From: a virus
Lineage: Duplodnaviria; Caudoviricetes
Strand: one strand, 5' to 3'
IMG/VR virus record: IMGVR_UViG_2974555854_000001
Location: 16,799 to 80,798 of that record
DNA: 64,000 bases
Shown here: positions 6,663 through 58,235 of the stretch, piece after piece
Numbering within the stretch: position 1 is the stretch's first letter
Layout: every line of letters starts with the position of its first letter
Translations under genes and position numbers: made by a program
Notes under the pieces: generated by a model
Databases searched by the model: none
Seen by the model: the letters and a program-made list of their open reading frames with translations, nothing else
What the model was told of the DNA's origin: nothing

Positions 6663-9257
6663 ATGAGTGTAGTCAAAAGCTTTCAAATCAATCTTGACAT
6701 ATCAAAAGACATTAAAAACAATCACTTTTCATTCAATCAAAACGATACAAACACCGCTAAGATCATTGTGAATTTGACTAACAATAAAACACCTATTGTT
6801 TTAACAGGTGCAACAGTACGTTTCGCATTTTTAAAAGCTGACGGAAAAAGAGTTTATCAAAATGCAACGATAACTAATCCAACAGCAGGAGTAGTTGAAG
6901 CATTATTAAGTTCGCAAGTTCTAGCCGTACCGAAAAGAGTCAAAGCAGAAGTAGAAATTTATTTCGATGGTACACAACAAAATACCGTTACTAAGCCATT
7001 CGAATTTACAGTAGAACGATCCATCTTGAGTACAGAAGCTATTCAAAGTTCTGATGAATTCCCTATTATCAATACTTTACACCAAAAATTAGCTGATGTA
7101 ATGAATATCGATTTAACTCAATTAGCTGATGTTGGCGCTTCAATGAATAGTATTCGATCAGACGTTACAACCCTGGATCGTAAAACGGATTGGATTGATG
7201 TACGTGATTACGGTGTTAAAGGTGATGGAACAGGTGATGATGCTGTAGGTATTATTGCAGCACTAGCGATGACCGAAACATTAAAACGCAAAAGGGTTAT
7301 TGTACCTGATGGACTTTATAATATTGGTCAGACTATTGTTGTTCCACGAAGAATACACCTTGATTTAAGTAAAAGTACATTTTTACGGCCCATTAATGAT
7401 GTTAATGTGATCCAGTTAAAACCTGAAGCTCAATTAACAAGTGGCGTAATCGATACAAGACGTTTCACTGGAAGAACATTTACAGATTTCACAAAGGCTT
7501 GTATTTATCTTGATGGTAATGACGTATTCTCACTTTACAACGAATTGCATCAAATCAACGGAATTATGATGTTAGGTGAAGATCATTATTACACAGATCA
7601 GAAATGGACAGGGACAGGGATTAGATTCTATTCCGGTAAGGGCGCTAATGGAGAAGCTAAATTTATTTCATTTGTCAACAGTTCACAATTAGGTATCTTT
7701 AACTTCCAAAAAGGTATTCATTTAGATGTAGATGCTACTATCAAAACTGAAGATGAATGGGCTTGGGTAACAGGTTGTACGTTTGACCAAATAAATATGA
7801 TGAACTGTACACAATCAATTGTATTGAATGGTGATCGTACTGTTCCGCGTGATGTAGGTGGAAATATCTTCACAAACCTTCAAATCCAAATTGAACCTAA
7901 TTCAGATTATGCTATTTATTGCGAAGGTAGTTTTAATCGATTTGAAGGCTTATTTTGGGATTTACAGAAGAACCCTAACCCTAGTATTCGATTTGCTAAA
8001 AGCTCTCGTTTTAACGTAATTAAATGCGCTCACGGCTATGATTCACCACAACACTTTTTGGATGAAGGTTATGACAATACTATTGAAAGTTCAACTAACC
8101 ACACTCCACATAAACGTAACATGGCTTATCCTTTAACGACTCCTTTCAACCCTAGCATGTTAGGAAATCAGGATGATTATATGGTTCGCGGTGATTTACG
8201 TGGATATACTTTCTCTCAAACATCTAGTCATCCGATTAAATACGGCGGTAATATGAAAGAGCTTCTAACACTCGAAATGGAAGTTGGTTGTACATGGGAT
8301 GCAACAAACGCCACTTATGAAAATCCTATTGTATTTGAGATTGATCTTTCTTCTGATCCGATTTGGTACGCTCATTTCATTGGTGTGATTGGGGCCTGGA
8401 AAACAAATCCTAAAGGAGTTAGAATTGAAGCTTTTGATGCTATAGCTAATGAATGGATGTGGTGTCATGAAGTCGATAAGAATAGCAGCTATCCTTTTGT
8501 TGTTTGTGCGCCGTGGGTAGGAATAAGTAAATGTACAAAGATAAGAATTACAATGTGGGGTACAAACGATCCAACAGGAAAAGATGTTCAACTAAGCCGC
8601 GTGTTTGCAATTAGTGGAAAGAACGAAGGTAAAGCTTGGATGCCGAAAGCAGGAGGAAACTTTGATGGAAAAGTTTATACTGTTGGTGGACTTGTTTTAG
8701 ATAAACGTACAAGTGATCCTGCTGATGCTGTTGAAGGTCAAGTTTGGTATAGAACAGATTCAAGTAAAGCTCCTGTTCGTGTTATGACTTCAGAAGGCGT
8801 TAAATCGTTCACAATGCAGTCGATTCCAAATGAATACCTTAACATTGCTGGTGCTGTTAAAAACGGTACAACAGCTGTTATAGCCGAAAATACCGCTGAT
8901 TATTTTAGAGTCACATGTAAAAACAATTCAGACGGTTTAATCATCCCAATGACTAGTGCTGTTGTTGGAAAAACCTATACACTTGTTTTAGATGTGATGT
9001 TACTGAATACAGTAGATGATGTTATACAGGTTCGTTTATATAACAGAACAAAGGCCACTTATTACAATTTGAACTTAGCTGTAACGACAACGGCCCTTAA
9101 CGTCAAACAACGCATAACTAAAAACTTCACGTTCGCAACAGGAACGACTTTCGCCGCTGGTGATGCAATAGAATTATGGATCGTACAATCATGGAAGAAT
9201 AGCACTCACGATACCTTTGAGTACAAAGTGTTCAAAGATACGCTTGCTATTTATTAG
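6663..9257 (+). CDS. BppU-type baseplate upper domain fused to a pectate-lyase-like beta-helix (tailspike/depolymerase)
   Basis: N-terminus F.F.QNDTNTAKI...GVVE...V.AEVEIY typical of BppU/DUF2479; WIDVRDYGVKGDGTGDDAVGI is the Pectate_lyase_3 start motif. Confidence 0.75.
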   Translation: MSVVKSFQINLDISKDIKNNHFSFNQNDTNTAKIIVNLTNNKTPIVLTGATVRFAFLKADGKRVYQNATITNPTAGVVEALLSSQVLAVPKRVKAEVEIYFDGTQQNTVTKPFEFTVERSILSTEAIQSSDEFPIINTLHQKLADVMNIDLTQLADVGASMNSIRSDVTTLDRKTDWIDVRDYGVKGDGTGDDAVGIIAALAMTETLKRKRVIVPDGLYNIGQTIVVPRRIHLDLSKSTFLRPINDVNVIQLKPEAQLTSGVIDTRRFTGRTFTDFTKACIYLDGNDVFSLYNELHQINGIMMLGEDHYYTDQKWTGTGIRFYSGKGANGEAKFISFVNSSQLGIFNFQKGIHLDVDATIKTEDEWAWVTGCTFDQINMMNCTQSIVLNGDRTVPRDVGGNIFTNLQIQIEPNSDYAIYCEGSFNRFEGLFWDLQKNPNPSIRFAKSSRFNVIKCAHGYDSPQHFLDEGYDNTIESSTNHTPHKRNMAYPLTTPFNPSMLGNQDDYMVRGDLRGYTFSQTSSHPIKYGGNMKELLTLEMEVGCTWDATNATYENPIVFEIDLSSDPIWYAHFIGVIGAWKTNPKGVRIEAFDAIANEWMWCHEVDKNSSYPFVVCAPWVGISKCTKIRITMWGTNDPTGKDVQLSRVFAISGKNEGKAWMPKAGGNFDGKVYTVGGLVLDKRTSDPADAVEGQVWYRTDSSKAPVRVMTSEGVKSFTMQSIPNEYLNIAGAVKNGTTAVIAENTADYFRVTCKNNSDGLIIPMTSAVVGKTYTLVLDVMLLNTVDDVIQVRLYNRTKATYYNLNLAVTTTALNVKQRITKNFTFATGTTFAAGDAIELWIVQSWKNSTHDTFEYKVFKDTLAIY

Positions 9258-15100: not shown

Positions 15101-18100
15101 AACTGCTGAAGTAATCCAAAAAGCTAAAGGTCAAGTTAAGAGTATGGATGAATTGATGGAACTTTCAGGCAAATTAGCTGATGGTACTGCTACTAACGAA
15201 GAGAAGAAACGTGCTCAATATCTTCTTACACAACAAGCAACATATGAGAACACTCGTGTAGCTCAACAAGAAGCTGAAAAGGTTAAGAAGGCTAAACAAC
15301 AAGAAGCTAAAGAACACAACTATACAGCTGGTCAAGCATTCCAGGCTAGTATTAAAACAAATAAAGCTTCTTCTAGCATTTCAACTACGACTGTTCAAAA
15401 GATGGGTATTGTCAGAGGTGAATTGAATACAACAGGAACTAAACACGCTGAACACGCTAAATCAGCTCAAGATTCATCTAAGAAAGTACAATTAGCCGGT
15501 AGTGAAATGTTCAAAGCTTCTAAACGAGATTTCAGTAAAACACGAGATCAAGTTGACCAAACAAAGAAAGAATACAATAAGTTAGAAGATGAAGCTAAAA
15601 ACATTCCTAAAGGTATCGCTAAAGGTATCATCAATGCTATTTCTGATCCTGAAAAAGCTATCGCGAAATTAGCAGAAAGTCTTGTTAAGAAATTTAAAAA
15701 GGCTTTAGGTATCAAATCACCTTCTCGTGTATTCATGGCTTTAGGTGGACACGTTATCGATGGTTTAGTTAATGGTTTAGATATCGGTAACTTAAAAGCT
15801 TTAGGTCAGAACGCATTTAAAGATTTCGCTGATGGAGCTTTCACAACTTTAGATGACATTAAAATGTTCTTAGGTGGCGGTGGTAACTTCAAGAATCCTG
15901 GTGGTGGTGGAGCTGGATGGAAGTCTATGATTTATGCTGCTGCTGCTCAAATGGGTATTTCGGTCACTCCTTCAGAAGTAAATGGTATTATTGCCCAAAT
16001 AAATAGGGAATCCGGAGGAAACCAAAACATCGTCCAATCTAGTGCTGTACGTGACATTAATACTAGAAATGGAAATCCGGCTAGAGGACTTTTGCAGTAT
16101 ATACCCCAAACATTTAATGCGTATAAAGTCCCAGGACATAACAATATATATTCCGGTTATGACCAACTTTTGGCCTTCTTTAATAACACAACTTGGAGAC
16201 GTGATTTGCCATATGGTAAGAGAGGTTGGGGGCCTAGAGGTGGTACACTGTTCGCAAACGGCGGTATTACAGGATCGATGTACCAACAGGCACAAAGTAA
16301 CGGTAATGTGCCGAATGGAGGATTTATCGATAAACCTCATTTCGTAGATGGTGGACGTGGTATTGCAGGAGAAGCAGGAGCAGAAGCTATCATTCCTTTG
16401 TCCAACAGCAGAAGAAGTCGTGCTTTAGACCTATATTCTCAAGTTGGAAACATCTTAGGAGTTCACGCTTATGCTAATGGTGGAGTAACCAAAAAGTTAA
16501 ATTACACTGTTCAATCAGGTAACACGCTTTCAGGTATCGCTACACTATTCAAAACTTCTGTTGATGCACTTAAAAAGATCAACACTAGCCTAGCTAAAAC
16601 TGCAAGCAGTAAAGCGTTAACAGCTGGTATGAAGGTTAATGTAACAGGTTTGATTAAAGATGATGATTCATTCAGATCAAACAGTTTACTTGATCCTAAC
16701 CGCAAAAAGCCTGGATATGTTCAAGCTGAAGACGGATCATGGGTTAAGAAAACTATGTATAACGATCCTTCTTATGCAGCATCACAAAAAGCTGGTAAAC
16801 CTGTAGCTGCTAAACCACCGGCAAAAACGTATGCTACTAAATACGGTCATGTAACAGCTGTCGAAGGTGATTATAGCGAAATGATGTCTACAATTGGATA
16901 CTTGCAAAACAATGGTATCTATAACGATTCTCAAGCATTATACGCTATGAAATCTCAAGTTCGTCCTCAAACAAGAGGAACACAAGACCGCCGTGCTTAC
17001 AATGATGCTCAAATCGATATCATTTCTAAAATGGATAACGTTAAGAAAGCTTCAGAATGGTTCAGAAGTGCTAACTTATTCTTATCCGGTGATGATTGGA
17101 AGAAAGCGTACAATCAAACTATGGAAATGGTTAAGGCTAATGCAGAAGCGAAAGCACAAGCTGAAAATGATTCTAAGTTAGCGAACCGACAAGCGACACT
17201 ATCTCGTGAACAGACTTTAGGATTAGCTACAGACTCACGTACTTCTTCTTATTTACGTGATAATATCCGTGCTTATTCTAAGACTGATGAACAGAAGTTA
17301 GCTTATAACACGGCTCAAATGGACGTATTCAAGGGTATGGAAAACGTCAAAACGTTCAGTCAATGGTTCGATCAAGCTAAATTGTTTGGTACTGCTGCTG
17401 AAATCAAACAAATCAAAGAAAACTTGACTGAAATCGTTAAAACAAATGCTATCGCCGGTGTAACTAATGCAACAAACGCATGGTTCGATACATTTGACAA
17501 ACGTACTCCTGCTGTAATCAAGAACCTGGAACGTACTGTTAACACAATCGATTCAATCAAAACAGCTCAAGAAGATGCAGTATTGAACAGTAAGATTGAT
17601 TCTTATATCGCTGATCGTCAAGCAGCTCTAGGTTTCGATAACCGTACTGATATTGAGAAAAAGCAGTCTAAAATGGATTCTATTAAGAGTCAAATTGATA
17701 CAGCTATTCAGCAAAACGCTGAACTCAAATTTAAGACGGATGGTTCAGATATCGATGCTAGACTGAAACAACTTCAAGCAGATAAGGAAAAGTTGAATCA
17801 AGGTATGAAGGAAACTAGTGACTATGGTAAATCTAAAGGTTTATCAGATAAGGACATTAACGATTCTCTTCAACGCTATAAAGATCAACTTGCAGCTATT
17901 CAGGAAGAAACAACTAAGCTGATCCAGCAGAAGAAAGATTCTGTTGATATGTTCAACTCGAACGAAGCGGCTATTGGTTCATTAACTGAAGAGTACAAGA
18001 AATTAGAACGTGAAATGGAAGAAACGCAACGTAAAGCTGATGTGCTTCAGAAGATCAAGGATAAAGTTAACTCTATTTTTGATTGGGATACAAGCAGCGT

Positions 18101-30602: not shown

Positions 30603-30758
30603 TCATTCACTCTCCTGGACTTCAAAATAATAGTTATTAGCGGCTACATAAAAGCCATTCATAAATGCTGTATATAAATCAAATGGATTTTGAACTGTTG
30701 TTACAGCTAGCAATCCATTGAGATAACCACGTTTAAAAGCAATCATATCGTACATCAT
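30603..30758 (-). CDS. Small hypothetical protein (51 aa), not in the ORF track
   Basis: Overlaps the sigma gene stop and abuts the thyA start; MMYDMIAFKRGYLNGLLAV... Confidence 0.55.
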   Translation of the reverse strand: MMYDMIAFKRGYLNGLLAVTTVQNPFDLYTAFMNGFYVAANNYYFEVQESE

Positions 30759-31456
30759 GCTATCACCAAATCAAAATGTGCTGCTGCTTTTGGTCTGATT
30801 CTTTTCTTGATGATACGACTAACATGTGCTTGACTGATGCCTAATCCTGCTGCAATTTCCTTCTGACCTTTATCCTGGATAAGTTGCTCAATTATGTACT
30901 TCTCGTTGTCAGGTAAAGTATCGAAGAATGCGTTAACTTCAACCATTGAATAGTCTTGTTTGAATCCGAAAAACGTTGATAAAAGATCATCTTCACTATC
31001 ATCAGCGAATACCGGCTTGTCCAAACTTTTAACAGTCATATTCAACGAATAATTAATTGCATCGTTAACTTCTTTTTCAGTTAACTTTGTGTCTTGCATA
31101 ATTTCTTTAACTTCTTTTTCGAAAGAACTTTCTCTATTGATTTTAGAAAAATGTTCTCTTACGTGACGTGGGTAGCGGATAGAAGTTGTTCTCTCCCTAG
31201 CCCAATGAAACCATTCGCCCATCATAACCTGAACAGCGTATGTTGAAAATTTAACGTCCGGTTTTTTGATCGGATCAAATCTAGCACAAGCGTTTAATAA
31301 ACCGATGCACACAACTTGCTCAATGTCTTCCTTTGAGTAGTTAGTGTGATTTTCGTCCTTAATCCAATATCCAGCTAATTTTTCATTCATTACGAAACCA
31401 ACTAGACCTTTGTTTTCTGCAAATAAAGCGTTTCTTTCCTCAATTGATCTTAACAT
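30755..31456 (-). CDS. RNA polymerase sigma factor (diverged SigF/SigG/SigB-like)
   Basis: Region 2 EDIEQ..CIGLLNACARFDP...FSTYAV; region 4 QKEIAAGLGISQAHVSRI; sigma-A promoter TTGAAA-17-TATAAT upstream. Confidence 0.88.
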   Translation of the reverse strand: MLRSIEERNALFAENKGLVGFVMNEKLAGYWIKDENHTNYSKEDIEQVVCIGLLNACARFDPIKKPDVKFSTYAVQVMMGEWFHWARERTTSIRYPRHVREHFSKINRESSFEKEVKEIMQDTKLTEKEVNDAINYSLNMTVKSLDKPVFADDSEDDLLSTFFGFKQDYSMVEVNAFFDTLPDNEKYIIEQLIQDKGQKEIAAGLGISQAHVSRIIKKRIRPKAAAHFDLVIA

Positions 31457-46952: not shown

Positions 46953-46982
46953 TAGTATGTACGCCTTGTTCAAATCCTATTC
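46953..46982 (-). promoter_or_regulatory. Sigma-G (forespore) consensus promoter GAATA-N18-CATACTA
   Basis: Matches the Bacillus sigma-G consensus GHATR-18-CATAHTA at every position. Confidence 0.65.
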
Positions 46983-47718: not shown

Positions 47719-50204
47719 AAATTACCTTAAATTCCAGGGAAAGTAAGCCATTAGATAATCCACAAATGGTTATGAAGGAGAAATTAACGTTGGGATCGCC
47801 TAAAAATGATCCCCTGCTTCTTCCTGTTGCTGTTGAACCTAAGTTACCAATAGTAAGACCTTCAACAGATGTAAACGTCAATGTGCGCCAATTTGAAAAG
47901 CCTGAAGCTAAACAGAAGAAAAAGATAACTTTACCATCCATTAATTTTCAACTAGCCGAACCGATGAACACAACTTTCTCTGTAAAGCCTGTTCCTACAA
48001 CGGATAATGAAAAGATAAACGTATTCATAGAAGCATTTGCAAATACTTACAAAGAATTTTTTAATCAAATCCGGAATTTTTCGTACGATGATAACGGTTT
48101 GTCTATACCTCAACAGGATAAAATCTTTATGGAAACAGTCATAGACAATAAAAAAGTACAGCAATTTATTACAACCAATGAGCACCAGGAAGAATATGTT
48201 GAACAGCAAATAGGTTTTACATGGTATAAGGCACAAGTTTTGAAGCAACATAAGGAAGTTATTGACTTTGATGTGAATAAATCGATCATTTATGAGTTCA
48301 ATTTGAAATTCACACCGGCCCTAACGTTAAAGCCACACGAAAAACTGTCTGATAAGATGCTCCGTGACTTCCTTGAGCTTAGTAAATTGTTCAAAGATGA
48401 CGAAAAAGCTCTGATCCAGTTCGGATTTCAACCATCAGAAAATGATTGGTATAAGGAAGGTAATGTTCAACTAAAGGACTTACCAACTAAAATCAAGAAG
48501 AGTGAGTACAGCACTAATAAAATGGGCTATTCAGCGTTTGATTGTTGCTTGAGACTCATTGTTCAAAGTGATGATAAAATACGCTTAGAAACAATCTCAC
48601 GCGGTTTAGTCAGTACGTTGAAACGTTTAGAGTACGACAATGAATTAATCGCCAAACAAGTCAAACCAAAAAGAATCAAATCATTCTACAAACGTAAAGT
48701 ATTGGGCCGCAAAATAGATGTTCCTTTATCATTCAGAAAGCGATTCATTTTAACTAACAAGGAAATAGCACACTTTATCGTACTTCCGAACAGATCATTG
48801 CAAAAGGATTATCACCTAGAAGTGGATGAAAAAGGTGTGACAACTGTTCATAAAAGCTTCTTATCCGGTAAAGGCTTGTGGTTAGGTGATGTAACGGTCA
48901 AAGGCAATAACAAACAATTCCGTATTCCAACTGAAGAACTGGATCAGCTTTGTGGAACATACGCATTTGTTGGTGAACCGCGTTCAGGTAAGGATATGAG
49001 TTGTTCACGTTTCATTATAGAATTAGCTAAAAAGGGCCACGGTGCAATTGTTCCTGATGCTATTGATGAAGCAGGGCGCGGTATGGCAGATATTATTAAA
49101 CAAAATGTACCGGCTAGTAGAATTGTTGACATTGATCTTGCAGACTTCAATAATCCTGTTTATTTCGGCCTAGATGACATTGTAGATGCAATAGGTATAA
49201 CAGGCATTGATGTTGTCGCAAACGATCTTGTAGGGATATTAGAGCTTGATAAGAATTATACTTCAAAGCAATTAGCACGATTAGTAGCTAAAGCGTGTAA
49301 ATGTAACCTATATGAAATGTTTAATTTCCTGAAGTCAGATAAATACGCACGTAAAATCCAGGAACGTGTATTAACTGAAGGTAATGAGCTTCTACATTTG
49401 CAATTAGAAATGGAATATTTTCAGACTACAATTCAAGCTAATGTAAGAGGGGCCGTTATTAATCGTCTTGATGAATTATTATCTATGTCTATCATGAAAA
49501 ACTTATTTGCAGCAAGGTCAAATCCTAAATTCAACCTTCAGAAGTTTATCGAACAGAATAAAATCGTTCTGATCCGCATGAAAAAAGATGGTGGATTAGG
49601 TGAACAAGGCGTTAAGATCATGATGAACCTAGTGCTGTTGAAAGTTAGTTGGTTAAAGAAAATCAAACAAACTGATAACGTGACGTTCCTTGTATTCAAT
49701 GAATTCCACCAATACGCTACTGAAACATTCAATGAAACGTTAAGCTCTTTAATCCTGGAAAGTCCGAAATATCGCTTGGGTATCAATCTAATATTCCACA
49801 CACCAAACAAGATTGACCGCAAATTGTATGAATGTATTCAGTCAGGTGCAAAAGGATTGTTCCTATTCAAAAACGGAAATCTAGGCATATTCAGGGATTT
49901 GTTCGAACGTATTAAGCCGCTAGATGTTGAAGCTTGTTTGAAAATTAAACGTCACGAGTCGATGTATTTGAGCAACGTTGAAGATGCTGAACCATTTTTC
50001 ATTAAGATGCATCCAACAGATAAATTTGACACGAGTTATAGGTCAGTCAAGGAAACAGAAAAATACGGAACAAAAGCTTCAATCGTTAATTCTGATATCT
50101 TCCAGGTTGAGAAGTGGATGTATGAACCTGAACCCGAACCTGAAGAAAAAGAAGAAAAAACTGAAGAAAAACCGAAAAAATCCAAAAAATCTAAGAAAAG
50201 TTGA
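47715..50204 (+). CDS. VirD4/TraG-like (HerA/FtsK superfamily) ATPase
   Basis: Walker A GEPRSGKD (about 48972), Walker B variant FLVFNEFH (about 49698), and ES.KYRLGINLIFH resembling the coupling-protein E.RKYG...L..Q motif. Confidence 0.72.
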   Translation: MKITLNSRESKPLDNPQMVMKEKLTLGSPKNDPLLLPVAVEPKLPIVRPSTDVNVNVRQFEKPEAKQKKKITLPSINFQLAEPMNTTFSVKPVPTTDNEKINVFIEAFANTYKEFFNQIRNFSYDDNGLSIPQQDKIFMETVIDNKKVQQFITTNEHQEEYVEQQIGFTWYKAQVLKQHKEVIDFDVNKSIIYEFNLKFTPALTLKPHEKLSDKMLRDFLELSKLFKDDEKALIQFGFQPSENDWYKEGNVQLKDLPTKIKKSEYSTNKMGYSAFDCCLRLIVQSDDKIRLETISRGLVSTLKRLEYDNELIAKQVKPKRIKSFYKRKVLGRKIDVPLSFRKRFILTNKEIAHFIVLPNRSLQKDYHLEVDEKGVTTVHKSFLSGKGLWLGDVTVKGNNKQFRIPTEELDQLCGTYAFVGEPRSGKDMSCSRFIIELAKKGHGAIVPDAIDEAGRGMADIIKQNVPASRIVDIDLADFNNPVYFGLDDIVDAIGITGIDVVANDLVGILELDKNYTSKQLARLVAKACKCNLYEMFNFLKSDKYARKIQERVLTEGNELLHLQLEMEYFQTTIQANVRGAVINRLDELLSMSIMKNLFAARSNPKFNLQKFIEQNKIVLIRMKKDGGLGEQGVKIMMNLVLLKVSWLKKIKQTDNVTFLVFNEFHQYATETFNETLSSLILESPKYRLGINLIFHTPNKIDRKLYECIQSGAKGLFLFKNGNLGIFRDLFERIKPLDVEACLKIKRHESMYLSNVEDAEPFFIKMHPTDKFDTSYRSVKETEKYGTKASIVNSDIFQVEKWMYEPEPEPEEKEEKTEEKPKKSKKSKKS

Positions 50205-50270
50205 CTTTAGTTTAACTTGAATTACCCTACTGTTTTAGTTGGTGTTGAACTTAAAAGGAGGTAGTTGAAC

Positions 50271-50417
50271 ATGAAAAAGCTACATTGGTGTGCGGTTTGT
50301 CACAAATTTGAAGAGGACAAAGAAAACAAAAAAGTCTACCCTTTCAATCCTGAAATCGAATATGTGATTACGCCTAGAATTTGCAATAAGTGTAAAAGAA
50401 AGAAGGTGAAGAAGTGA
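50271..50417 (+). CDS. 48-aa zinc-finger protein, not in the ORF track
   Basis: RBS AAGGAGG; CAVC...CNKC. Confidence 0.65.
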   Translation: MKKLHWCAVCHKFEEDKENKKVYPFNPEIEYVITPRICNKCKRKKVKK

Positions 50418-50485
50418 TTCATTTAATCGCTTTATCCTGGATCATTTATATAGCGAAAGAGCAATTAAAAAAGCCTTCCAAATAG
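50414..50485 (+). CDS. Possible 23-aa hydrophobic peptide
   Basis: GTGA overlap with the previous stop; (V/M)IHLIALSWIIYIAKEQLKKPSK; runs into a terminator. Confidence 0.35.
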   Translation: MIHLIALSWIIYIAKEQLKKPSK

Positions 50486-50498
50486 GAGGGCTTTGTTT

Positions 50499-50819
50499 TT
50501 ATTTTTTTCTATACTTTCCGTAATATTTAAGCCAACTGTTACAAGCGCTTTTAGTGTGAATATAATCAATGCGTTCATAACCACTTTCCGCTTCTTCGAT
50601 ATCCATATCCATTTTTTCTATCGTCCAATCAACTTCTTTAATTAAAAAATTAATATCAACATCGTTTAATTCTAAATTTTCGTCAGATAAAACGTTGTCT
50701 ATTTGTTGAACCGCTTCATAAGGTAACTTTTTGTAAGCTTTAACTACATCCACTTTACGTCCCATATCAAATTTCCTCCATATATCCTTCGACTTTATCA
50801 TGCAATTTACGGTTAGCAT
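50499..50819 (-). CDS. Hypothetical protein; probable start ATG at 50765
   Basis: RBS GGAGG before MGRKVDVV. Confidence 0.55.
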   Translation of the reverse strand: MLTVNCMIKSKDIWRKFDMGRKVDVVKAYKKLPYEAVQQIDNVLSDENLELNDVDINFLIKEVDWTIEKMDMDIEEAESGYERIDYIHTKSACNSWLKYYGKYRKK

Positions 50820-51666
50820 CTACATAGTTTTTATATGTCACTGAAGTATCGCTATGGCCCAATAGTTCAGAAACATAACTGATTTCTAATCCTTTTTCTA
50901 GTAAATTTGTAGCTTGAGAAGCACGGAAAATGTGAGAAGAAAACTTTTCAACACCTGTTCGGCTACCGATCTTATCAAGGATTTGATTTACTCTACGTGT
51001 AGAAATTTGCTTCTTCGTACGTTCTGATTCAATAACGTATTCAGAATCCCATTTACGGCTATCTTTCATTTCCATAAGTTTATCATACGTTTTGCCTGTA
51101 ATCATTGGAAAGCGTTCTTTGTCACCTTTACCAATTACACGAATTACGATACGTCCGAAATCATTATCAATGTCAGACCATTTTAAATTTACCAGCTCAT
51201 TCACACGTAATGCTGCATCAAACAGAACGCGGATAATACACTCTTCCATTAAGTTATCACAAGCAAATGTAAGGTTCTTGATTTCAGACGTTTTAAGAGT
51301 CTTTACAGGCTTTTTAAGCTTTTTAGGTAAATAACTACTCAATTCCTTTTTATCAATGAATGGAGCTTTTTTCATACGTCCAGTACGGTTTAAGAATGAA
51401 AGGAATTCATTTGTGCTAACAGCTTTGCGTTCAATTGTAGCTGCTGATGTGTATTTGTTTTTAAGATGATCGATAAAATTAAGAAAGTCTTCCTTTTCGA
51501 AGTTGTTGATGTTCATATCCACATCATTTTGTTCCATATAAGTAACGAACTGATTAACGTCAGATACGTAATTGATAACTGTATTAGCTGATTTGTTGCG
51601 GCTTAACTCCTTTTCAAAAAGATCGATGTAGTGATTTAACGTTTTAACATTGTTGTATTTTGCCAT
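50767..51666 (-). CDS. Tyrosine recombinase (XerC/XerD-like)
   Basis: SAM-like N-terminal domain; catalytic residues in ALRVNEL, GKGDKER, HIFR, LGH and TYKNY all present. Confidence 0.9.
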   Translation of the reverse strand: MAKYNNVKTLNHYIDLFEKELSRNKSANTVINYVSDVNQFVTYMEQNDVDMNINNFEKEDFLNFIDHLKNKYTSAATIERKAVSTNEFLSFLNRTGRMKKAPFIDKKELSSYLPKKLKKPVKTLKTSEIKNLTFACDNLMEECIIRVLFDAALRVNELVNLKWSDIDNDFGRIVIRVIGKGDKERFPMITGKTYDKLMEMKDSRKWDSEYVIESERTKKQISTRRVNQILDKIGSRTGVEKFSSHIFRASQATNLLEKGLEISYVSELLGHSDTSVTYKNYVDANRKLHDKVEGYMEEI

Positions 51667-51697
51667 TTTAATTTCCCCTTTCGGTTATCTTACTCTT

Positions 51698-51740
51698 AGT
51701 ATATATGAGGAATACGAAGAAGTCAACTATTTCTTATAAG
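51698..51740 (-). promoter_or_regulatory. Sigma-A promoter TTGACT-17-TATACT for the recombinase, with CTTATAAGAAATA just upstream of -35
   Basis: Read directly from the sequence. Confidence 0.72.
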
Positions 51741-51788
51741 TATTTTTGGTTATAATAAAAAAAAGAAGGGTTTCCCCTTCTATAATCA

Positions 51789-52742
51789 TTACTCTTCTTC
51801 AGGGTAATAGGACATACAACCACAACCACCGATATCATCCATATCAATGTTCTTCATGTTCTTAGCTTCATATTCTTCACGAAGCTGCTTTAAAGTTAGC
51901 TGGTACTTTACTTTATTCTTCTGTTTACGAAGGATAGATGTATCTTTACCTAAAAATTGTCTCATTTCCTCTTCTTTTTCTTCATGATAGCGGTACAGTT
52001 CAGGGAATTCTTTTAACAGGTTAATGAAGTGGCCCTGACCTCCACGTACACAAAATCCACCACAATTATTATGAGCAAAACCCTTACCGTATAGGCGCGG
52101 CGATGCAATTCCTAAAGCATTTAGATCAGCTAACATTTCTTCTTTAACTACGAATGGTTCTTCACACATTGGGAATTCTACCTTATAAGGCAACCAATTC
52201 TTTTTAGGTGCTTCTTTACGATGATCTTCAGTCCAATCAATTCCTAAATAAAGAACAACTTCATCCGGATCATACTGATTGATAATCTTAGCAGCAGCAT
52301 CTTGTTTCAATTTGTGTGAACATTGAGCAATACGACTATTACCTATCCAACGTTCTTTCTTGAAAACCTCCCAGGGCGTACGTCCATCCATTGACCAATT
52401 CATTTGAGGAATACGTTTATTTACTAATTCTGATAATTCACGAAGGTATTGTTTTCTTTCTTCCATTAGCTCGTGAGATACATCAGGAATGTTTTTGGTT
52501 AAGTCTACAAGATCACTCACATGCACGTTAAATAGCTCTCCTGCTGTTTCAATCATAAACCGGTATAAATCCTTATCTTCGATTAAAGTATCCGTAAACA
52601 TCAAAATAACGTCTTCTACACCATGCTTTTCAATTACACGTTTAGCGGTGGCCCAACTACCTACTCCACCTGAATAAAAAATAATGTGTTTCATATGAAT
52701 AACCTCCTGGATTTTTGAATATACTACTATTAATACAGACAA
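51789..52742 (-). CDS. PAPS-reductase-family PP-loop protein; probable start ATG at 52694
   Basis: FYSGGVGS PP-loop; conserved Cys in IAQCSH, HNNCGGFC and GGCGC. Confidence 0.7.
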   Translation of the reverse strand: MSVLIVVYSKIQEVIHMKHIIFYSGGVGSWATAKRVIEKHGVEDVILMFTDTLIEDKDLYRFMIETAGELFNVHVSDLVDLTKNIPDVSHELMEERKQYLRELSELVNKRIPQMNWSMDGRTPWEVFKKERWIGNSRIAQCSHKLKQDAAAKIINQYDPDEVVLYLGIDWTEDHRKEAPKKNWLPYKVEFPMCEEPFVVKEEMLADLNALGIASPRLYGKGFAHNNCGGFCVRGGQGHFINLLKEFPELYRYHEEKEEEMRQFLGKDTSILRKQKNKVKYQLTLKQLREEYEAKNMKNIDMDDIGGCGCMSYYPEEE

Positions 52743-52794
52743 GTTGTTGAAGATTATATGTAAAAAGCACCGGAATAACCGATGCTCATTTATA

Positions 52795-54657
52795 TTAAAG
52801 ATACAGTTTTAATGTACCTTGCAGCTTTTCAATCTTATCGTGAAGCATTTTAACTTCTTCCTGGTGAACACGATCATTTGCACTAACTTTATCTAAGAAG
52901 TCATCGAAGTTCTTATTCATTTCTTTGTGTTTTCTAGCTAGAATATCATTAGCTTCTTCGAATGCATCAAGTGTTTTCTGCTTGTTATCATTGCATTCAT
53001 AAGCTTCTTCCAGCTCTTTTTTGTATGAAAGAACAGCTACTTCTAACTCATTAGCACGTTTTAATTCTTCTTCATACAAACGTTTATATTCAACAGCTTC
53101 ATTGTAAGCACGTTGACCTTCTTCTTCAAGATGATCGTAACGTTCAGATAGTTGGTGTTTTTCCTTCAACACACGCTCATATGATTCATTACGTTGCTGG
53201 TAATCAGCTTCAAGACTATCGTTTTTTCGATGAAGACATACAACTTCTTCTTTTAATCGAACGTTTTCTTCAGATAAATCACGACAAGCAGCAGAAACAT
53301 CAGCGTTGACACGTTTAGAATCAGTGAGATTTTGAGCTAATTTATCACGCTCAATACGAACAGCTTCAAGTTGTTCTTGTACATATTTAACGTTGCTATC
53401 TTTATGTTTGATTGCGGTTTCAAGCTGATTGATAACTGATTCTTTTTCAAACACCTTGTTTTCCCACGTTTCGTTTAAAGTAGCAACAGCTTCTTCGTAA
53501 GAAATGTGTTTCTGATCCGCTTGTTTCTGAAGACGTTTAATCTCCTGGTCACGAGAAGATACTTGCTGTTTGTAACTTTCAACTGTTTGCTCAAGATCAG
53601 TGATAACCTTGTCCATTTTACTTACTTGTGAAGCTGAAGTAGCCGGTTTAATAGCAGTAGCCATCATTTTCTTTTTATCCCCCTGTTTTTTAACACCTTT
53701 AGCACCATTTGAAATCTTAGCCGCCATTGCAGCATCAGTTAAACCATTTTCTTTCTTCCAACCATAATAAACAGCGTTATTAAGTTTGAAATGACGTTGA
53801 ATTTTACCGTTTGAATTACCTTCATTACGCATTTTGTGATAAATTTCAACAGTTAATCCATTCAAAGGTTTTTTTGCGTTAAACATAACAACAACACTCT
53901 CCTGTTTGATTTTTTTAGGCTTGGACTTTCTAACTTGTGGTGCTCTCTCTTTCACTACGTTGTCGAATTGGCCCTGACCTTTTAGATATTTTTCTAACAG
54001 CGGCTTAACTTGATTTTTGATAATTCGAGAAACCTGAACTTGTGAAATCCCTAATGCTTTTCCTATTTCAGATTGTGTTCTATTATCCATCACAAGTTTA
54101 ACCACTATTGCAGCACGTTCATCCAACGTTTCCAGGAACTCATTTACGAAAGTGTGTGAGTAATCGTCATGTTCGCCAATCATATCCGATATTGTTAGCG
54201 GATCACCGTCATTTTCGTAAACGGTTTGTTCTATGGATGAAGGAGTTCGTACCTTCATAAAATATAATAACTCGTCTACTTCCGATAAGTCAAGTTCTAA
54301 TTTCTCTGCAATTTCTTCACGACTCATACCGTCACATTCATTGTATCGAAATTTGCTATGCAATTCCTTTAAACGTCTAGGAGTTTTTATTGTTCCATCA
54401 TCACGGATAAAACGTTGTATCTCACCTATCATCATAGGAACAGCATATGTTGACCATTTAACACCATAACTATCATCAAAACGATCAAACGCCTTCATGT
54501 AACCCATAGCTGCAAGTTGGAACAGATCATTAGGATCATAACCACGATTGTTAAAGCGCTGAACAACAGACCATATAAGGCGTAGATTACGATGCACATG
54601 TTCTTCTTTATTTTCCAAAACACCTTCAATCATATTTTCCTGCTTAGACAAAATCAT
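52795..54657 (-). CDS. sigF: SigF-like sigma factor fused to an HTH-like segment and a long coiled coil
   Basis: LIWSVVQRF.NRGY.P.DLFQ, STYAVPM.IGEIQRFIRDDGT, TVYENDGDP and TQSE...LGISQVQVSR match Bacillus SigF; about 370 extra residues follow. Confidence 0.88.
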   Translation of the reverse strand: MILSKQENMIEGVLENKEEHVHRNLRLIWSVVQRFNNRGYDPNDLFQLAAMGYMKAFDRFDDSYGVKWSTYAVPMMIGEIQRFIRDDGTIKTPRRLKELHSKFRYNECDGMSREEIAEKLELDLSEVDELLYFMKVRTPSSIEQTVYENDGDPLTISDMIGEHDDYSHTFVNEFLETLDERAAIVVKLVMDNRTQSEIGKALGISQVQVSRIIKNQVKPLLEKYLKGQGQFDNVVKERAPQVRKSKPKKIKQESVVVMFNAKKPLNGLTVEIYHKMRNEGNSNGKIQRHFKLNNAVYYGWKKENGLTDAAMAAKISNGAKGVKKQGDKKKMMATAIKPATSASQVSKMDKVITDLEQTVESYKQQVSSRDQEIKRLQKQADQKHISYEEAVATLNETWENKVFEKESVINQLETAIKHKDSNVKYVQEQLEAVRIERDKLAQNLTDSKRVNADVSAACRDLSEENVRLKEEVVCLHRKNDSLEADYQQRNESYERVLKEKHQLSERYDHLEEEGQRAYNEAVEYKRLYEEELKRANELEVAVLSYKKELEEAYECNDNKQKTLDAFEEANDILARKHKEMNKNFDDFLDKVSANDRVHQEEVKMLHDKIEKLQGTLKLYL

Positions 54658-54679
54658 TCCCCCTTTTCATCGGTACGGC

Positions 54680-55069
54680 CTATTCACTATCCATTTCATT
54701 AACTAACGGTTTAGCTACGAATTTAACCACACCATCAGAAAAATCCGCTTTTACTTCCAGGGACATAATGTGTTTCGTATCATATGAATCAAGCTTGTAC
54801 AAAGAAACTGTACGGTTAAATGCATGGTCAGGATTATCAGCTGTTTTAAGTATGTAACCCTTACGTTGAAATTCTTCAGCTGATCCGCAACGACTAACTA
54901 ACATTAATTGCTGGTAAACATTTTCGATAACATCATTGTACTTCTGCATGATAAGCTCAAACGTTTTTGTGTAGTTAACCTTATCTGATGTAGCAGCATC
55001 AGCGTTAGCAGCTTTAACACGCTTGTAATTGACTGTTTCACCAAACGTATACTGTTTATTCTCTTCCAT
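54680..55069 (-). CDS. Hypothetical protein
   Basis: 129 aa with RBS. Confidence 0.6.
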   Translation of the reverse strand: MEENKQYTFGETVNYKRVKAANADAATSDKVNYTKTFELIMQKYNDVIENVYQQLMLVSRCGSAEEFQRKGYILKTADNPDHAFNRTVSLYKLDSYDTKHIMSLEVKADFSDGVVKFVAKPLVNEMDSE

Positions 55070-55072
55070 AAC

Positions 55073-55312
55073 CTATAACCCCCTAATAATTTTAAATGCA
55101 TTTAAGATATATTCCTGGTGTAATTGTTGTTCTAAGGTGTACCATCCTCTAACCTTTTGGCAAGTTGTACCTTTATTTAACCAAACATTTCCTAATTCGT
55201 CAACAATAATTTTATGGCCCAATGAATCAGCGTACATTTCACAGCTCTCTTTTACACGCTTTAAATCCTGATCTAACCCTGCTGTCAATTTACTTCCAAA
55301 CATGATTTCCAC
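55073..55312 (-). CDS. Hypothetical protein; probable start ATG at 55303
   Basis: 79 aa, RBS GAGGTG. Confidence 0.55.
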   Translation of the reverse strand: MEIMFGSKLTAGLDQDLKRVKESCEMYADSLGHKIIVDELGNVWLNKGTTCQKVRGWYTLEQQLHQEYILNAFKIIRGL

Positions 55313-55357
55313 CTCTTTTTAAAATTTGTTGTATCAATCCTGAATAACAAGGGTACA

Positions 55358-55600
55358 GTTAAATAATAATTAAATAATATATATAATTAAATATAATTTA
55401 TAATTAAATATAATTAACATTTCTATTTATATTATAATTAAAATATAATTAACAGTTCAAGTAAATATAGTTCTTTATTAACAATTAAATATAATTAATA
55501 ATTATTTATAACTAATAATTAAAACACTAATAACAATTAGCCTTAACCAACAAGAATCTTTATTTAATAATTAACAATAACTAATAACAAATATAAAAAC
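55358..55600. repeat. Extremely AT-rich region with TATAATTAA repeats (candidate replication origin/unwinding element)
   Basis: TATAATTAA at 55382, 55399, 55433, 55444 and 55490; almost no G; lies at a transcription divergence point. Confidence 0.55.
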
Positions 55601-55601
55601 A

Positions 55602-56444
55602 TTGTCGATCAAAAATTGTGCGAAAGAAATTGTTGCAGCTTCTTCCAAGATCAGTTATAATACAAGCATAACGATATGGGAGGTTGAGAAAGTGAACGAA
55701 TTGAAAATTGTTTACACTCAAAAAGTTTTAGGTAATGTATTCAGTATTTATGGTGATGTGGACAATCCTTTATTTTTAGCGAAAGATGTTGCTGAATGGA
55801 TTGAACACAGCGCTACACATATGATGTTAAAAACTGTTGATGATGACGAAAAGCTGACCGAAACATTGTTTCTATCAGGTCAAAAACGTGAAGCTTGGTT
55901 TCTAACTGAAGATGGTTTATATGAAGTTTTAATGCAATCACGAAAACCAATTGCAAAACAATTCAAACGCAAAGTAAAAGAGATTTTGAAATCAGTTAGA
56001 CGTACCGGTGCTTATATGACCGAAAACACATTAGAGCAAGCGATTAACAATCCTGATTTCACAATTGGACTTCTAACCAAATTGAAAGAAGAACAAGAAC
56101 GTGCAAAGCTCCTGGAATATGAAAAGCACCTGAAAGAAATGTTGATCCAGGAACAAACACCTAAAGTTGAATCATATGACCGCTACATAGATAGCGAAGG
56201 GACTTACTGCATCCGTGACGTTGGAAAAATTTTAGGTTATGGTCAGAAAGAATTCTTCGCGTTACTTCGTGAGAATGAAATTTTATACAAACATCGGAAT
56301 GTTCCAAAACAGCAATTTGTAGATAGTGGGTATTTCGAACTAAAGACAGGTTCAGGTGTCCACTCTGAAAAGACATACATTCAATCTCGTATCACTACTA
56401 AAGGATTGGATTGGTTATCGAAGAAATTCAATAAGACAGCATAA
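55602..56444 (+). CDS. Bro-N/antirepressor (KilAC/ANT) protein; probable start GTG at 55692
   Basis: PLFLAKDVA...LTEDGLYEVLMQSRKPIAKQFK Bro-N domain; C-terminal FF.LLRE...P.QQF.DSGYF...ITTKG ANT domain. Confidence 0.88.
   Translation: MSIKNCAKEIVAASSKISYNTSITIWEVEKVNELKIVYTQKVLGNVFSIYGDVDNPLFLAKDVAEWIEHSATHMMLKTVDDDEKLTETLFLSGQKREAWFLTEDGLYEVLMQSRKPIAKQFKRKVKEILKSVRRTGAYMTENTLEQAINNPDFTIGLLTKLKEEQERAKLLEYEKHLKEMLIQEQTPKVESYDRYIDSEGTYCIRDVGKILGYGQKEFFALLRENEILYKHRNVPKQQFVDSGYFELKTGSGVHSEKTYIQSRITTKGLDWLSKKFNKTA
55633..55661 (+). promoter_or_regulatory. Sigma-A-like promoter TTGCAG-17-TATAAT
   Basis: Lies upstream of the Bro gene RBS. Confidence 0.6.
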
Positions 56445-56529
56445 CAATTAATCAACTTCCTGAAATTGGTCATTTACTAGGTTAATCCCCTGGTGATATG
56501 ATTGGTTTCGAAAGGGAGTTGATTTTTTT

Positions 56530-57132
56530 ATGAAGAAAATTGTTACAGCATCAGCACTAGCAGCAGCTTTATTAATTCCAACTACGAGTATGGCGGCTAC
56601 TAGTTATACAGTTCAACCGAATGATACAATGTGGAAGATCGCGGCGAAGAATAAAGTAGGGGTACAAGAATTAATCAACGCTAACTCTTCGCTGAAGAAT
56701 CCAAATTTAATCTATGTGGGCCAAAAATTAACGATCCCCACACAAGATAATTCATATGAACAACAAGTGATCCAGCTTGTTAATAAAGAAAGAGCTAAAG
56801 CCGGTCTTAAACCATTAAAGGAAAATTGGGAATTGTCACGAGTAGCTGAATTCAAATCAGCAGATATGCGCGACAAGAAATATTTCGATCACAATAGTCC
56901 TACTTACGGATCACCTTTTACAATGATTAAGAATTTCGGTATCTCATATAAAACAGCAGGGGAAAATATTGCCGCTGGTCAGAAAACACCTGAAGAAGTG
57001 ATGAAGTCGTGGATGAATTCACCAGGACACCGCGCTAATATCCTTAATGCCGGTTATACTCAAATTGGTGTAGGTTATGTTGCCGGTGGTAGTTATTCAA
57101 CTTATTGGACACAACAATTTATTTCACAATAA
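56530..57132 (+). CDS. Secreted LysM-CAP(SCP) protein, SafA-N/YkwD-like
   Basis: Signal peptide, LysM YTVQPNDTMWKIA...NPNLIYVGQKLTIP, CAP motifs YFDHNSPTYGSPF, GENIA and WMNSPGHRANIL. Confidence 0.92.
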   Translation: MKKIVTASALAAALLIPTTSMAATSYTVQPNDTMWKIAAKNKVGVQELINANSSLKNPNLIYVGQKLTIPTQDNSYEQQVIQLVNKERAKAGLKPLKENWELSRVAEFKSADMRDKKYFDHNSPTYGSPFTMIKNFGISYKTAGENIAAGQKTPEEVMKSWMNSPGHRANILNAGYTQIGVGYVAGGSYSTYWTQQFISQ

Positions 57133-57135
57133 GCC

Positions 57136-57233
57136 TTGACTTTTCATCGGATGGGCCATATACTATTAACTACGGATAATTATTTCGTTACTTGTCTCTC
57201 GACTACAAGCCTGGAAAACTTGTGGTCTTTTTT
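57136..57233 (+). ncRNA. Putative small RNA (~60 nt) bounded by its own sigma-A promoter and terminator
   Basis: TTGACT-17-TATACT (57136-57164), then about 60 nt with no ATG and no RBS-led ORF, ending in the GACTACAAG/CTTGTGGTC stem plus T6. Confidence 0.55.
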
Positions 57234-57282
57234 ATGTATATAGGGGTATATTCCGTTTTGGCTGATCCAACAAAAACCAACA

Positions 57283-57412
57283 TCGATTTATTTCACACTC
57301 TCAACATTTGAGGTTGCAGCAGATGGGGGCCGTTTCCGATCAGTGACTTCACTTAAAAATCAAAGTCGATTTAATTCACAGTGTCAGTTTTCGAACCCTG
57401 GAAGTGGGGGCC
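57283..57412. repeat. Imperfect tandem duplication (period about 82 bp)
   Basis: TCGATTTAwTTCACAsTsTCA at 57283 and 57366, each followed by TGGGGGCC. Confidence 0.6.
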
Positions 57413-57785
57413 ATAACATTTTACAGCTTTTTTCAAAAATCCAGGATCGAAATAAATCAAAGTCTCAAAAATTCACTTTTCAAAACTTTTTATCAAAAAC
57501 AGGTTTCACTTCCTGAAAAAGTGTCAATGATATAAGTGTAACAACAATTAACTCACTCTCTCAATGATTCTGTTAGGCTCGAAGTAGAAATGTGACTGAA
57601 ATTTAATCCCCCTTAAATTGATGGTACGCTTTTTACAGGTGATATGCTAAAGAAAACACCTTTATTGATATGATTTATAATCAGATGTTTTTTTACTCCT
57701 CCCAGTTTTTTTCATCTGATAATATAATTCATGTTAGTATAGGTGTTTTCTTTTTTTATAAACAAAAACAAGGAGTGGATCAGGA

Positions 57786-58235
57786 ATGGAGTTTAACAAT
57801 GTGGCGATGGAGATTATGTGTAAACGATGCAAAACAACAACTGATGCAACAAATTTTCCTTCACATAAAATTGCTGTTAAGTGTGATTGTGGTGGATGGT
57901 TGATAACTCCAACAGGTGCTTTTGATGGACGTTTGGTTTATAAGAAGAAAGCAATTGCTGTTGCTAGTAACAGTTTTGTTTCAATTATAATTGCTGATTC
58001 TGTTGAAGATGCTACAAATTATTTCGAAAACCTTCACGATGAAGGAGTTTTGCAAACGAATGTAATCAAACCAACAACTTACCAGGACATAACTTTCAAT
58101 GAACTTTACGAATATCCTGATGGAAGAAAAGAAAACGTGGTTGTTGATCTTTGTGACATCATCTTTAGTTGTCAACAAAACGTTTTAGAAGCTGTATGCA
58201 TGACGATGGAAGAGTATCAGCAGAAGTTCTTCTGA
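57786..58235 (+). CDS. Zinc-ribbon-containing hypothetical protein
   Basis: CKRC...CDC; RBS GGAG. Confidence 0.6.
   Translation: MEFNNVAMEIMCKRCKTTTDATNFPSHKIAVKCDCGGWLITPTGAFDGRLVYKKKAIAVASNSFVSIIIADSVEDATNYFENLHDEGVLQTNVIKPTTYQDITFNELYEYPDGRKENVVVDLCDIIFSCQQNVLEAVCMTMEEYQQKFF

Follow-up and report, generated by a model that had tools for sequence, protein, structure and literature searches.

We analysed a 64,000-nucleotide (nt) window of a virus genome assigned to Caudoviricetes (IMG/VR record IMGVR_UViG_2974555854_000001, positions 16,799 to 80,798 of a record of 80,798 bp with direct terminal repeats), focusing on the minus-strand open reading frame (ORF) at 52795..54657. This ORF runs for 620 codons without an in-frame stop, from an ATG at 54657 to the stop codon at 52795-52797. 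It encodes a SigF/SigG-like sigma domain, followed by a basic linker, a helix-turn-helix (HTH) module, a second linker and a long coiled coil; all of these lie on the minus strand. The surrounding 8 kb (50000-58000) is ~82-85% identical at the DNA level to the Bacillus megaterium siphophages Slash, Staley and Stahl of the genus Slashvirus. Among public sequencing runs, those listed as containing this sequence were DNA runs with a small share of it, and no RNA run was listed. The ribosome-binding site (RBS) AAAAGGGGG lies 7 nt ahead of a TTG at 54651 and just 1-2 nt ahead of the ATG at 54657. In the annotated relatives the start is placed at the equivalent TTG, and the fusion is deposited in the protein database with 618 amino acids (aa). 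Since the RBS spacing, the annotation of the relatives and the database entry agree, the TTG at 54651 is probably the true start, giving a product of 618 aa. Residue numbers throughout refer to the 620-aa form from the ATG at 54657.

The sigma domain, with regions 2 and 4 and a putative region 3, was delimited to aa 11-222 (53992..54627) using NCBIfam, Pfam, the structure chain PDB 1l0o_C and the ratio of nonsynonymous to synonymous substitution rates (dN/dS), which for this domain was 0.14-0.22; all dN/dS values given here are pairwise. Against NCBIfam, aa 11-220 matched the SigF/SigG family NF004052 (E 1.4e-59), spore_sigF TIGR02885 (E 9.4e-56) and the SigB/F/G model (E 7e-54). The scores against the curated cut-offs were 189.2 vs 321.45 for SigF TIGR02885, 145.3 vs 457 for SigG TIGR02850 and 201.7 vs 311 for SigF/G NF004052. 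By these scores the protein is SigF-like and not a host-type SigF or SigG. Pfam Sigma70_r2 matched at 21-87 with 48.8 bits (cut-off 24) and Sigma70_r4 at 175-214 with 30.4 bits (cut-off 24.1). Sigma70_r3 reached 22.7 bits, slightly under its cut-off of 25.3, and aligns to sigma-F region 3. The best models were those of the group-3 SigF/G/B factors across regions 2-4, and the protein does not have the make-up of a group-4 extracytoplasmic function (ECF) sigma, which is without region 3.

Among solved structures, the best match was sigma-F of Geobacillus stearothermophilus (1l0o_C of entry 1L0O, E 1.9e-54). Regions 2.4 and 4.2, whose segments STYAVPM-IGEIQRF-RDDG and GISQVQ-SR read the -10 and -35 elements, are near-identical to those of this sigma-F. 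The first-pass annotation of the sequence had listed four near-identical SigF motifs, and the comparison with 1l0o_C bears this out, as WSVVQRF and VYENDGDP are identical while GEIQRFIRDDGT and GISQVQVSR each differ by one residue. The same window encodes a paralogous 233-aa sigma factor at 30755..31456 (minus strand), which is 32% identical to the sigma domain of the fusion. It has the same short region 3, its regions 2.4 and 4.2 have diverged, its promoter specificity is probably different, and it stops right after region 4 without any extension. Because this paralogue ends after region 4, the extension of the 620-aa protein can be regarded as an addition to an otherwise ordinary phage sigma factor.

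The basic linker (aa 223-262, 53872..53991) joins the sigma domain to the extension. Its amino-acid sequence is highly conserved, with a low synonymous rate (dS) and a dN/dS of 0.2-0.56, and in the full-length AlphaFold2 model, computed from five sequences, the predicted local distance difference test (pLDDT) was below 50 for residues 227-267. The HTH follows at aa 263-310 (53728..53871; dN/dS 0.09-0.28); in the full-length model its three helices span 270-278, 283-289 and 294-303. When aa 258-312 were folded alone as a 55-aa construct with 25 sequences, AlphaFold2 returned a three-helix bundle with a pLDDT of 83.7 and helices at positions 13-21, 26-32 and 37-46 of the construct. The L, T, Y, I, W and K positions are nearly invariant in the module family described below, and WKKENGLTD is unchanged in all Slash-like sequences.

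A profile of aa 225-420 matched the proteins P0014 (E 5e-19), P0015 (E 1.4e-16) and P0018 (E 1.5e-10), all three arrays of the ~45-residue module in tandem, which themselves match Pfam HTH_23 at 1.6e-23, 2.4e-13 and 3.9e-14, respectively. Together with the confidently folded three helices, this indirect link through the relatives of the module supports the label "HTH-like" given to this stretch in the first pass. The top structural matches of the HTH, with weak scores, were mostly HTH DNA-binding domains of resolvases, transposase-like proteins, LuxR-type regulators and phage repressors. In the ESM Atlas, a search by structure gave weak HTH neighbours only, with TM scores of 0.36-0.47 (HTH_Tnp_1, HTH_23, HTH_7 and Terminase_5), and a search by features gave no usable match. 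Alignment of the HTH with region 4 of the same protein by hhalign revealed no similarity.

The second linker (aa 311-341, 53635..53727) is poorly conserved save for QG(D/E)..MMATAIKP, with a dN/dS of 0.6-1.0 and a pLDDT below 50 for residues 309-341 in the full-length model. Beyond it, the coiled coil occupies aa 342-620 (52798..53634), where the model has long helices at 342-417, 423-553 and 559-619, with breaks near 418-422 and 554-558. Residues 346-620 (275 residues) contain no proline and two glycines. The hydrophobic periodicity at 3.5 residues had a power of 3.16, compared with 0.20 +/- 0.20 for shuffled sequences, and 0 of the 2000 shuffles reached the observed value. The ~280-aa heptad-rich coiled coil that had been proposed for this end of the protein is accordingly confirmed by its periodicity, the lack of proline and the long predicted helices. 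Indels among the homologues measure 7, 14 and 21 aa in this part, as expected if the heptad register must be kept, and dN/dS was 0.3-0.6 in most pairs.

Full-length orthologues turned up by tblastn in three phages, with 616 aa in Stahl, 598 aa in Slash and 616 aa in Staley; over residues 3-620 they are 65-69% identical to the protein of the window. When residues 225-620 were searched against 5.8 billion proteins, a 614-aa protein on an 80.8-kb JGI contig (P0007) and a 365-aa fragment were added. Since the frame of this fragment stays open to the contig end and reads through the tail of sigma region 4, we take it to be a fusion cut by the contig edge. An exhaustive HMMER search further added P0034, a 545-aa protein on a 23.8-kb metagenomic contig with 37% identity over residues 9-386. 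It has the same order of sigma domain, linker, HTH and coiled coil; its coiled-coil-like region is kept, with a sequence that can no longer be aligned to that of the window. The contig of P0034 is syntenic, with an integrase and an opposite-strand 830-aa protein that matches the 829-aa ORF of the window.

A single frame therefore runs across the junction in six other independent sequences, namely those from Stahl, Slash, Staley, the JGI contig, the contig fragment and P0034. In addition, dN/dS is below 1 along the whole extension, indicating purifying selection. The first pass had described a frame passing without a stop from the sigma domain through linker, HTH and coiled coil to 620 aa, and had advised looking for a frameshift among homologues. 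The former is confirmed, and the check found one frame at the junction in all seven sequences, the window included. Because the frame is kept in independent sequences and dN/dS stays below 1 along the extension, we conclude that these genes encode a single genuine polypeptide and that a sequencing artefact is excluded for practical purposes.

Searching with the profile of aa 225-420 (hmmsearch) also returned stand-alone proteins of 186-379 aa, with E values from 8e-11 to 7e-4 (P0017, P0019, P0021-P0023, P0027, P0028 and P0031-P0033), all of them unnamed or annotated as "hypothetical". These proteins have an N-terminal Cys-rich segment (CxxC...CxxC), one or two HTH modules of the form GLT..Y...K..G....I......FY.WKK.NGL, and heptad-rich C-terminal tails that read as coiled coil, a character judged by eye. 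The Slashvirus fusion is without the Cys-rich segment, and its sigma domain and basic linker stand at the equivalent position. The stand-alone genes sit in early or regulatory regions of phages. A search for this family in the IMG/VR loci found nothing, and in GTDB genomes it found a Sporosarcina contig and one weak Planococcaceae match only. These profile matches place the HTH and coiled-coil module of the fusion in a small family of stand-alone phage proteins, uncharacterised so far and newly noted here. As a separate observation, the metagenomic proteins P0014, P0015, P0020, P0024 and P0035 consist almost wholly of 3-8 tandem HTH modules of ~45 residues (GLT..Y...K..G....I......L..WK..NGL), an unusual poly-HTH architecture.

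In two cases a sigma gene lies directly upstream of the stand-alone gene, encoding 221 aa next to P0017 and 234 aa next to P0019. P0017 (WP_301245741.1, 355 aa, "hypothetical protein") is located on NODE_20 of Sporosarcina highlanderae, a phage-like contig of 41.8 kb, and P0019 on a Logan contig. On both contigs the sigma gene ends with ...GGAGGGAGTAATGTGA, which contains the Shine-Dalgarno (SD) sequence and the GTG start of the partner, and the partner gene overlaps the sigma stop codon. Compared with the sigma domain of the window, the split-pair sigma has 26% identity. A third stand-alone relative has a sigma-like gene 2.1 kb upstream on the same strand. Since at least one other lineage encodes a related partner separately, overlapping the end of the sigma gene, we read the Slashvirus protein as an apparent Rosetta-stone fusion, in which a sigma factor is joined to a partner that is translationally coupled to it elsewhere. 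The first-pass annotation had considered that phages might encode the two halves separately and that the long frame might hide a missed stop. Separate halves do occur, as overlapping genes in one distant lineage (two sequences), while a missed stop does not, the Slash-like genomes having one frame. The separate halves therefore speak for an evolutionary gene fusion, since the Slash-like genomes keep the frame and a dN/dS below 1.

The junction of the fusion carries a further element. At 53884..53907, AAACAGGAGAGTGTTGTT is followed by an in-frame ATG (Met258), a candidate internal RBS and start for an HTH and coiled-coil product of ~363 aa. We therefore weighed the reading that these phages make two products, the fusion and a free HTH/coiled-coil protein from Met258, which would recreate the two-protein system of the split phages. 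The 18 nt of AAACAGGAGAGTGTTGTT are nucleotide-invariant in six Slash-like sequences, with the in-frame ATG 8 or 11 nt past the AGGAGA hexamer. In the 37%-identical gene of P0034, AAACAGGAG is kept, with an ATG 11 nt past its AGGAGT, despite the different residues around it. CAGGAG is moreover an unexpected way to encode Gln-Glu, because GAG makes up 15-22% of the Glu codons and CAG 17-41% of the Gln codons in these genes. At the equivalent boundary of the split sigma and partner genes, the SD GGAGGGAG with its GTG parallels AAACAGGAGAGTGTTGTT with its ATG.

On the other side, the spacing of 11-12 nt exceeds the optimum in four sequences. Another CAGGAG at 53545-53550 (codons 370-372, Gln-Glu in RDQEIKR) is equally conserved, being present in all five full-length Slash-like genes, but has an ATG 8 nt downstream in the JGI homologue only. 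A conserved AGGAG is thus not specific to start sites, and the junction motif could also be a fossil of the fusion or a constrained Gln-Glu pair. Overall, the SD-like AAACAGGAG with its ATG may be either a relic of the fusion event or a working internal start, and we consider the production of two products possible, though somewhat doubtful. It is equally uncertain, and rather less than probable, that free and sigma-bearing chains would mix through the coiled coil and so set the number of sigma domains per complex. A second SD-like element, CAGGGGGA followed by ATGATG (Met331/332), is located at 53662-53685 in the second linker. There, ATG ATG GCT ACT GCT ATT AAA is nucleotide-invariant in six Slash-like sequences, and the CAGGGGGA site is not conserved in P0034.

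The sigma gene is the third in a transcription unit that begins with two small genes on the same strand (54680..55312), encoding 79 aa (55073..55312) and 129 aa (54680..55069). They match phrog_20781 and phrog_21879, both of unknown function, and Stahl, Slash, Staley and the JGI contig share the order of two small genes and sigma gene. Upstream of the unit, a sigma-A-type promoter-like site, TTGAAC-18-TATAAT (55431..55460, minus strand; a consensus match only), lies in AT-rich DNA, in the divergent region that the unit shares with the antirepressor gene. The intergenic stretch between the antirepressor gene and the sigma operon (55385-55496) also contains three exact copies of AATTAAATATAATT, with start-to-start distances of 17 and 81 nt. 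No further copy of this 14-mer occurs in the window (0.25 expected), and Stahl, Slash, Staley and the Slash-like JGI contig have as many copies at identical spacing. The triplet is a candidate operator array. Downstream, between the sigma gene and the integrase, a 317-aa gene resembling phosphoadenosine phosphosulfate (PAPS) reductase (51789-52742, minus strand; phrog_424 E 6.6e-51, no Pfam match) precedes a terminator at 51764-51781. This gene is absent from the equivalent position in Stahl, Slash, Staley and the JGI contig, and a terminator annotation immediately follows the sigma gene in Slash and Staley.

For possible target promoters, a single sigma-F-type match, TGCATA-N15-GGGATATATT, was found at 8878-8905 of the genome, 7.9 kb before the window start (locus L015:279-306). 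It lies ~35 nt upstream of a 206-aa RsfA/GerR-like gene whose product itself has a coiled-coil tail. Both promoter boxes are invariant in the genome of the window and three relatives, while five positions in and just before the spacer vary. This rsfA-like promoter fits, without proving, a SigF-like holoenzyme of host or phage origin that would transcribe one or more phage genes. A SigG-type consensus without mismatch, GAATA-N18-CATACTA, also lies at 46953-46982 (minus strand) upstream of a small hydrophobic ORF; genome-wide, this pattern occurs 3 times, compared with 3.2 in shuffles.

The explanation that we find best, held tentatively and at somewhat under an even chance, is an active SigF/G-type sigma factor with a covalently attached HTH and coiled-coil partner, which would supply an extra DNA contact and dimerisation. 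The operon would probably be transcribed early from the sigma-A-type promoter, and the sigma domain would bind the host core RNA polymerase (RNAP) and read SigF/G-like -10 and -35 elements, a preference proposed because the helices by which it recognises DNA hardly differ from those of sigma-F. A flexible basic tether of ~45 residues would carry the second HTH, which would add a sequence-specific DNA contact near the promoter, in the manner of a built-in activator or of the C-terminal domain of the RNAP alpha subunit. The coiled coil of ~280 residues would pair two fusions, or a fusion with a sigma-less product from the internal start. The synthesis of two products is compatible with this explanation and may be part of it. 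Domain composition, conservation of the fusion, purifying selection and split gene pairs are observations, whereas binding to core RNAP and DNA, promoter specificity, dimerisation and use of the internal start are inferred. More broadly, phages of spore-forming Bacillales might harbour an undescribed class of sigma-associated HTH and coiled-coil co-factors, in which the Slash-like gene would make both fused and free chains and hence a dimeric sigma-activator complex reading composite promoters. We rate this extended proposal as less probable than the explanation itself, a conjecture more apt to fail than to hold.

Several results weigh against an active sigma factor with a DNA-binding, dimerising partner. 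SigF/SigG consensus promoters are not enriched in the 80.8-kb genome compared with shuffles (3 vs 3.2 expected and 1 vs 0.6), the sigma domain stays below the curated NCBIfam cut-offs for SigF, SigG and SigB/F/G, and its region 3 is shortened by a deletion of 8-9 residues relative to G. stearothermophilus sigma-F. The full-length AlphaFold2 model is of low confidence (pLDDT 57). For the HTH, a direct Pfam scan of aa 225-345 was not significant, with sub-threshold hits to DUF2481 (E 0.032) and DUF7218 only. A Foldseek search of the PDB with the HTH model gave nothing at E <= 0.001 (E above 3), and the best result of a wide VIA-align search was a mycobacteriophage repressor HTH with a Z of 4.6, within noise. 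With regard to the partner, a sigma gene directly adjoins only 2 of the 7 stand-alone relatives examined and none is nearby in four. Since P0017 and P0019 are 54% identical to each other, their two adjacencies count as one lineage. The stand-alone relatives were also recognised only by their HTH and the beginning of the coiled coil, which is the part that the proposed homology covers.

Alternatively, the extension could act as a localisation tether: the coiled coil, alone or together with the HTH, would hold the sigma factor or its holoenzyme at a structure such as phage DNA, the nucleoid, the division septum or the forespore pole and thereby confine its activity. Parallels exist in RacA, an HTH and coiled-coil protein that anchors DNA at the pole, and in T4 gp55, which is tethered to the sliding clamp. 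The coiled coil would measure ~40 nm if fully extended, and its retention in P0034 without alignable sequence suggests a role as a physical spacer or in docking. The phage also has other sporulation-linked genes, the rsfA-like gene and a LysM-CAP gene. The protein is nevertheless without a membrane segment or a recognisable docking motif, and we regard a tether as unlikely.

A decoy or a means of evading the anti-sigma factor, both put forward in the first-pass annotation, seems slightly less probable still. Here the extension would shield the sigma factor from SpoIIAB, or a dominant-negative protein would soak up core RNAP or SpoIIAB and so block host sporulation. In 1L0O, sigma-3 is reportedly the part in contact with SpoIIAB, and it is this region that is shortened in the fusion. 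Phage SigF-like sigma factors are also known to lower the spore yield on expression (PMC9429907). Yet the intactness of the regions that recognise DNA, and the strong purifying selection acting on them, speak for an active sigma factor over a decoy. The short region 3, moreover, is not linked to the extension, because the 233-aa paralogue has it without any extension. Finally, a sequencing frameshift or missed stop that joined two separate genes, for which the overlapping halves in one other phage lineage (two related sequences) might be cited, can be dismissed as extremely improbable given an ORF without an in-frame stop, a 35-residue linker kept at the protein level, and seven sequences from different isolates, studies and metagenomes that are in frame across the junction.

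Sporulation-type sigma factors of phages are known to rewire Bacillus dormancy and have so far been treated as simple copies of SigF or SigG. The fusion and the extended sigma factors of Herelleviridae, ELDg169 included, indicate that many of them carry large appended modules, previously unexamined. The fused and split forms together predict that uncharacterised HTH and coiled-coil phage proteins act with sigma factors, perhaps as tethered activators or dimerisers. If so, this would be a new way of modulating sigma specificity and a source of parts for synthetic transcription control in Bacillus. If the extension should prove dispensable, the finding would shrink to a refinement of annotation.

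Among known proteins, those of Stahl (AKA61526.1, 616 aa), Slash (AGY48388.1, 598 aa) and Staley (AGY48783.1, 616 aa), collected in PHROG 21612, have the same architecture of sigma domain, HTH and coiled coil. Their neighbourhoods also resemble that of the window, with two small ORFs upstream, an integrase downstream, and an antirepressor and a LysM-CAP gene in divergent orientation. The phage of the window differs from them in having a PAPS-reductase-like gene that separates the sigma gene from the integrase, and in the indels of the coiled coil. In GenBank the three proteins are annotated merely as "RNA polymerase sigma factor", and the label of PHROG 21612 is likewise sigma factor. The genome announcement of Slash lists "four putative sigma/transcription factors" with no mention of a fusion (PMC3861416), and a literature search for coiled-coil extensions of phage sigma factors, or for transcription in Slashvirus, found no paper.

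The split pair on the Sporosarcina contig is like the fusion in that the partner combines an HTH of this module family with a coiled coil at the C-terminus, and is encoded by a gene that overlaps the sigma stop. It differs in consisting of two polypeptides, in the N-terminal Cys-rich segment and two HTH copies of the partner, and in its sigma factor, which has only 26% identity to that of the window and is not specifically SigF-like. Compared with SigF and SigG of the host Bacillales (1L0O), the window's protein likewise resembles a group-3 sigma, with regions 2 and 4, a putative region 3 and near-identical -10 and -35 recognition segments. It is without ~15-25 N-terminal residues, has a shorter region 3 and carries ~400 extra C-terminal residues. 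Sigma factors of the ECF41/ECF42 type resemble the fusion in principle only, as they too have a fused C-terminal domain that modulates activity; they are group-4 factors without region 3, with SnoaL-like or TPR extensions, and are cellular, not viral (general background; a review is PMC4598750).

The closest functional precedent comes from Herelleviridae. Schwartz et al. (2022) reported that induction of ELDg169 of phage Eldridge drives a SigF/SigG-like transcriptome in B. subtilis and lowers the spore yield by 99%; C-terminal extensions are not discussed in that paper (PMC9429907). ELDg169 is a phage SigF-like sigma as well, with 45% identity over the sigma domain. Its RefSeq coding sequence (CDS), YP_009274876.1, spans 506 aa, and cloning of the full CDS is not verifiable from the primers of the paper. 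The annotated CDS lengths in the extended-sigma phages (loci L004-L008: SPG24, Emery, Moonbeam, Eldridge and P59) are 506 aa for Eldridge gp169, 514 aa for Moonbeam gp165, 443 aa for P59, 405 aa for Emery gp94 and 330 aa for SPG24 gp080. Emery gp94, from a Brevibacillus phage, has yet another extension, without a Pfam match.

Like the window's protein, ELDg169, Moonbeam gp165/gp164, P59_168 and SPG24 gp080 have a long C-terminal extension, in which region 4 is followed by a charged linker and a short HTH-like segment, and the Herelleviridae extensions give weak Sigma70_r4_2 and HTH matches. An hhalign comparison of the fusion HTH with the HTH of these extensions showed no similarity (probability 0.2%). 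Unlike the fusion, the extensions of ELDg169, Moonbeam gp165 and P59 end in a C-terminal region that is not coiled coil; Moonbeam gp165, ELDg169 and P59_168 share the end ...VEYNFNFNVSG...FRINVGS. The statement in the first-pass annotation that phage sporulation-type sigma factors normally have 230-260 aa is thus incomplete, as the Herelleviridae versions reach 330-514 aa. That the fusion is exceptional in its length holds only in part, and what stands as specific to its lineage is the HTH family and the long coiled coil. On the sequence comparisons made here, long SigF-like phage sigma factors are a wider phenomenon, and its HTH_23-like module and coiled coil of ~280 aa set the Slashvirus protein apart as a distinct form.

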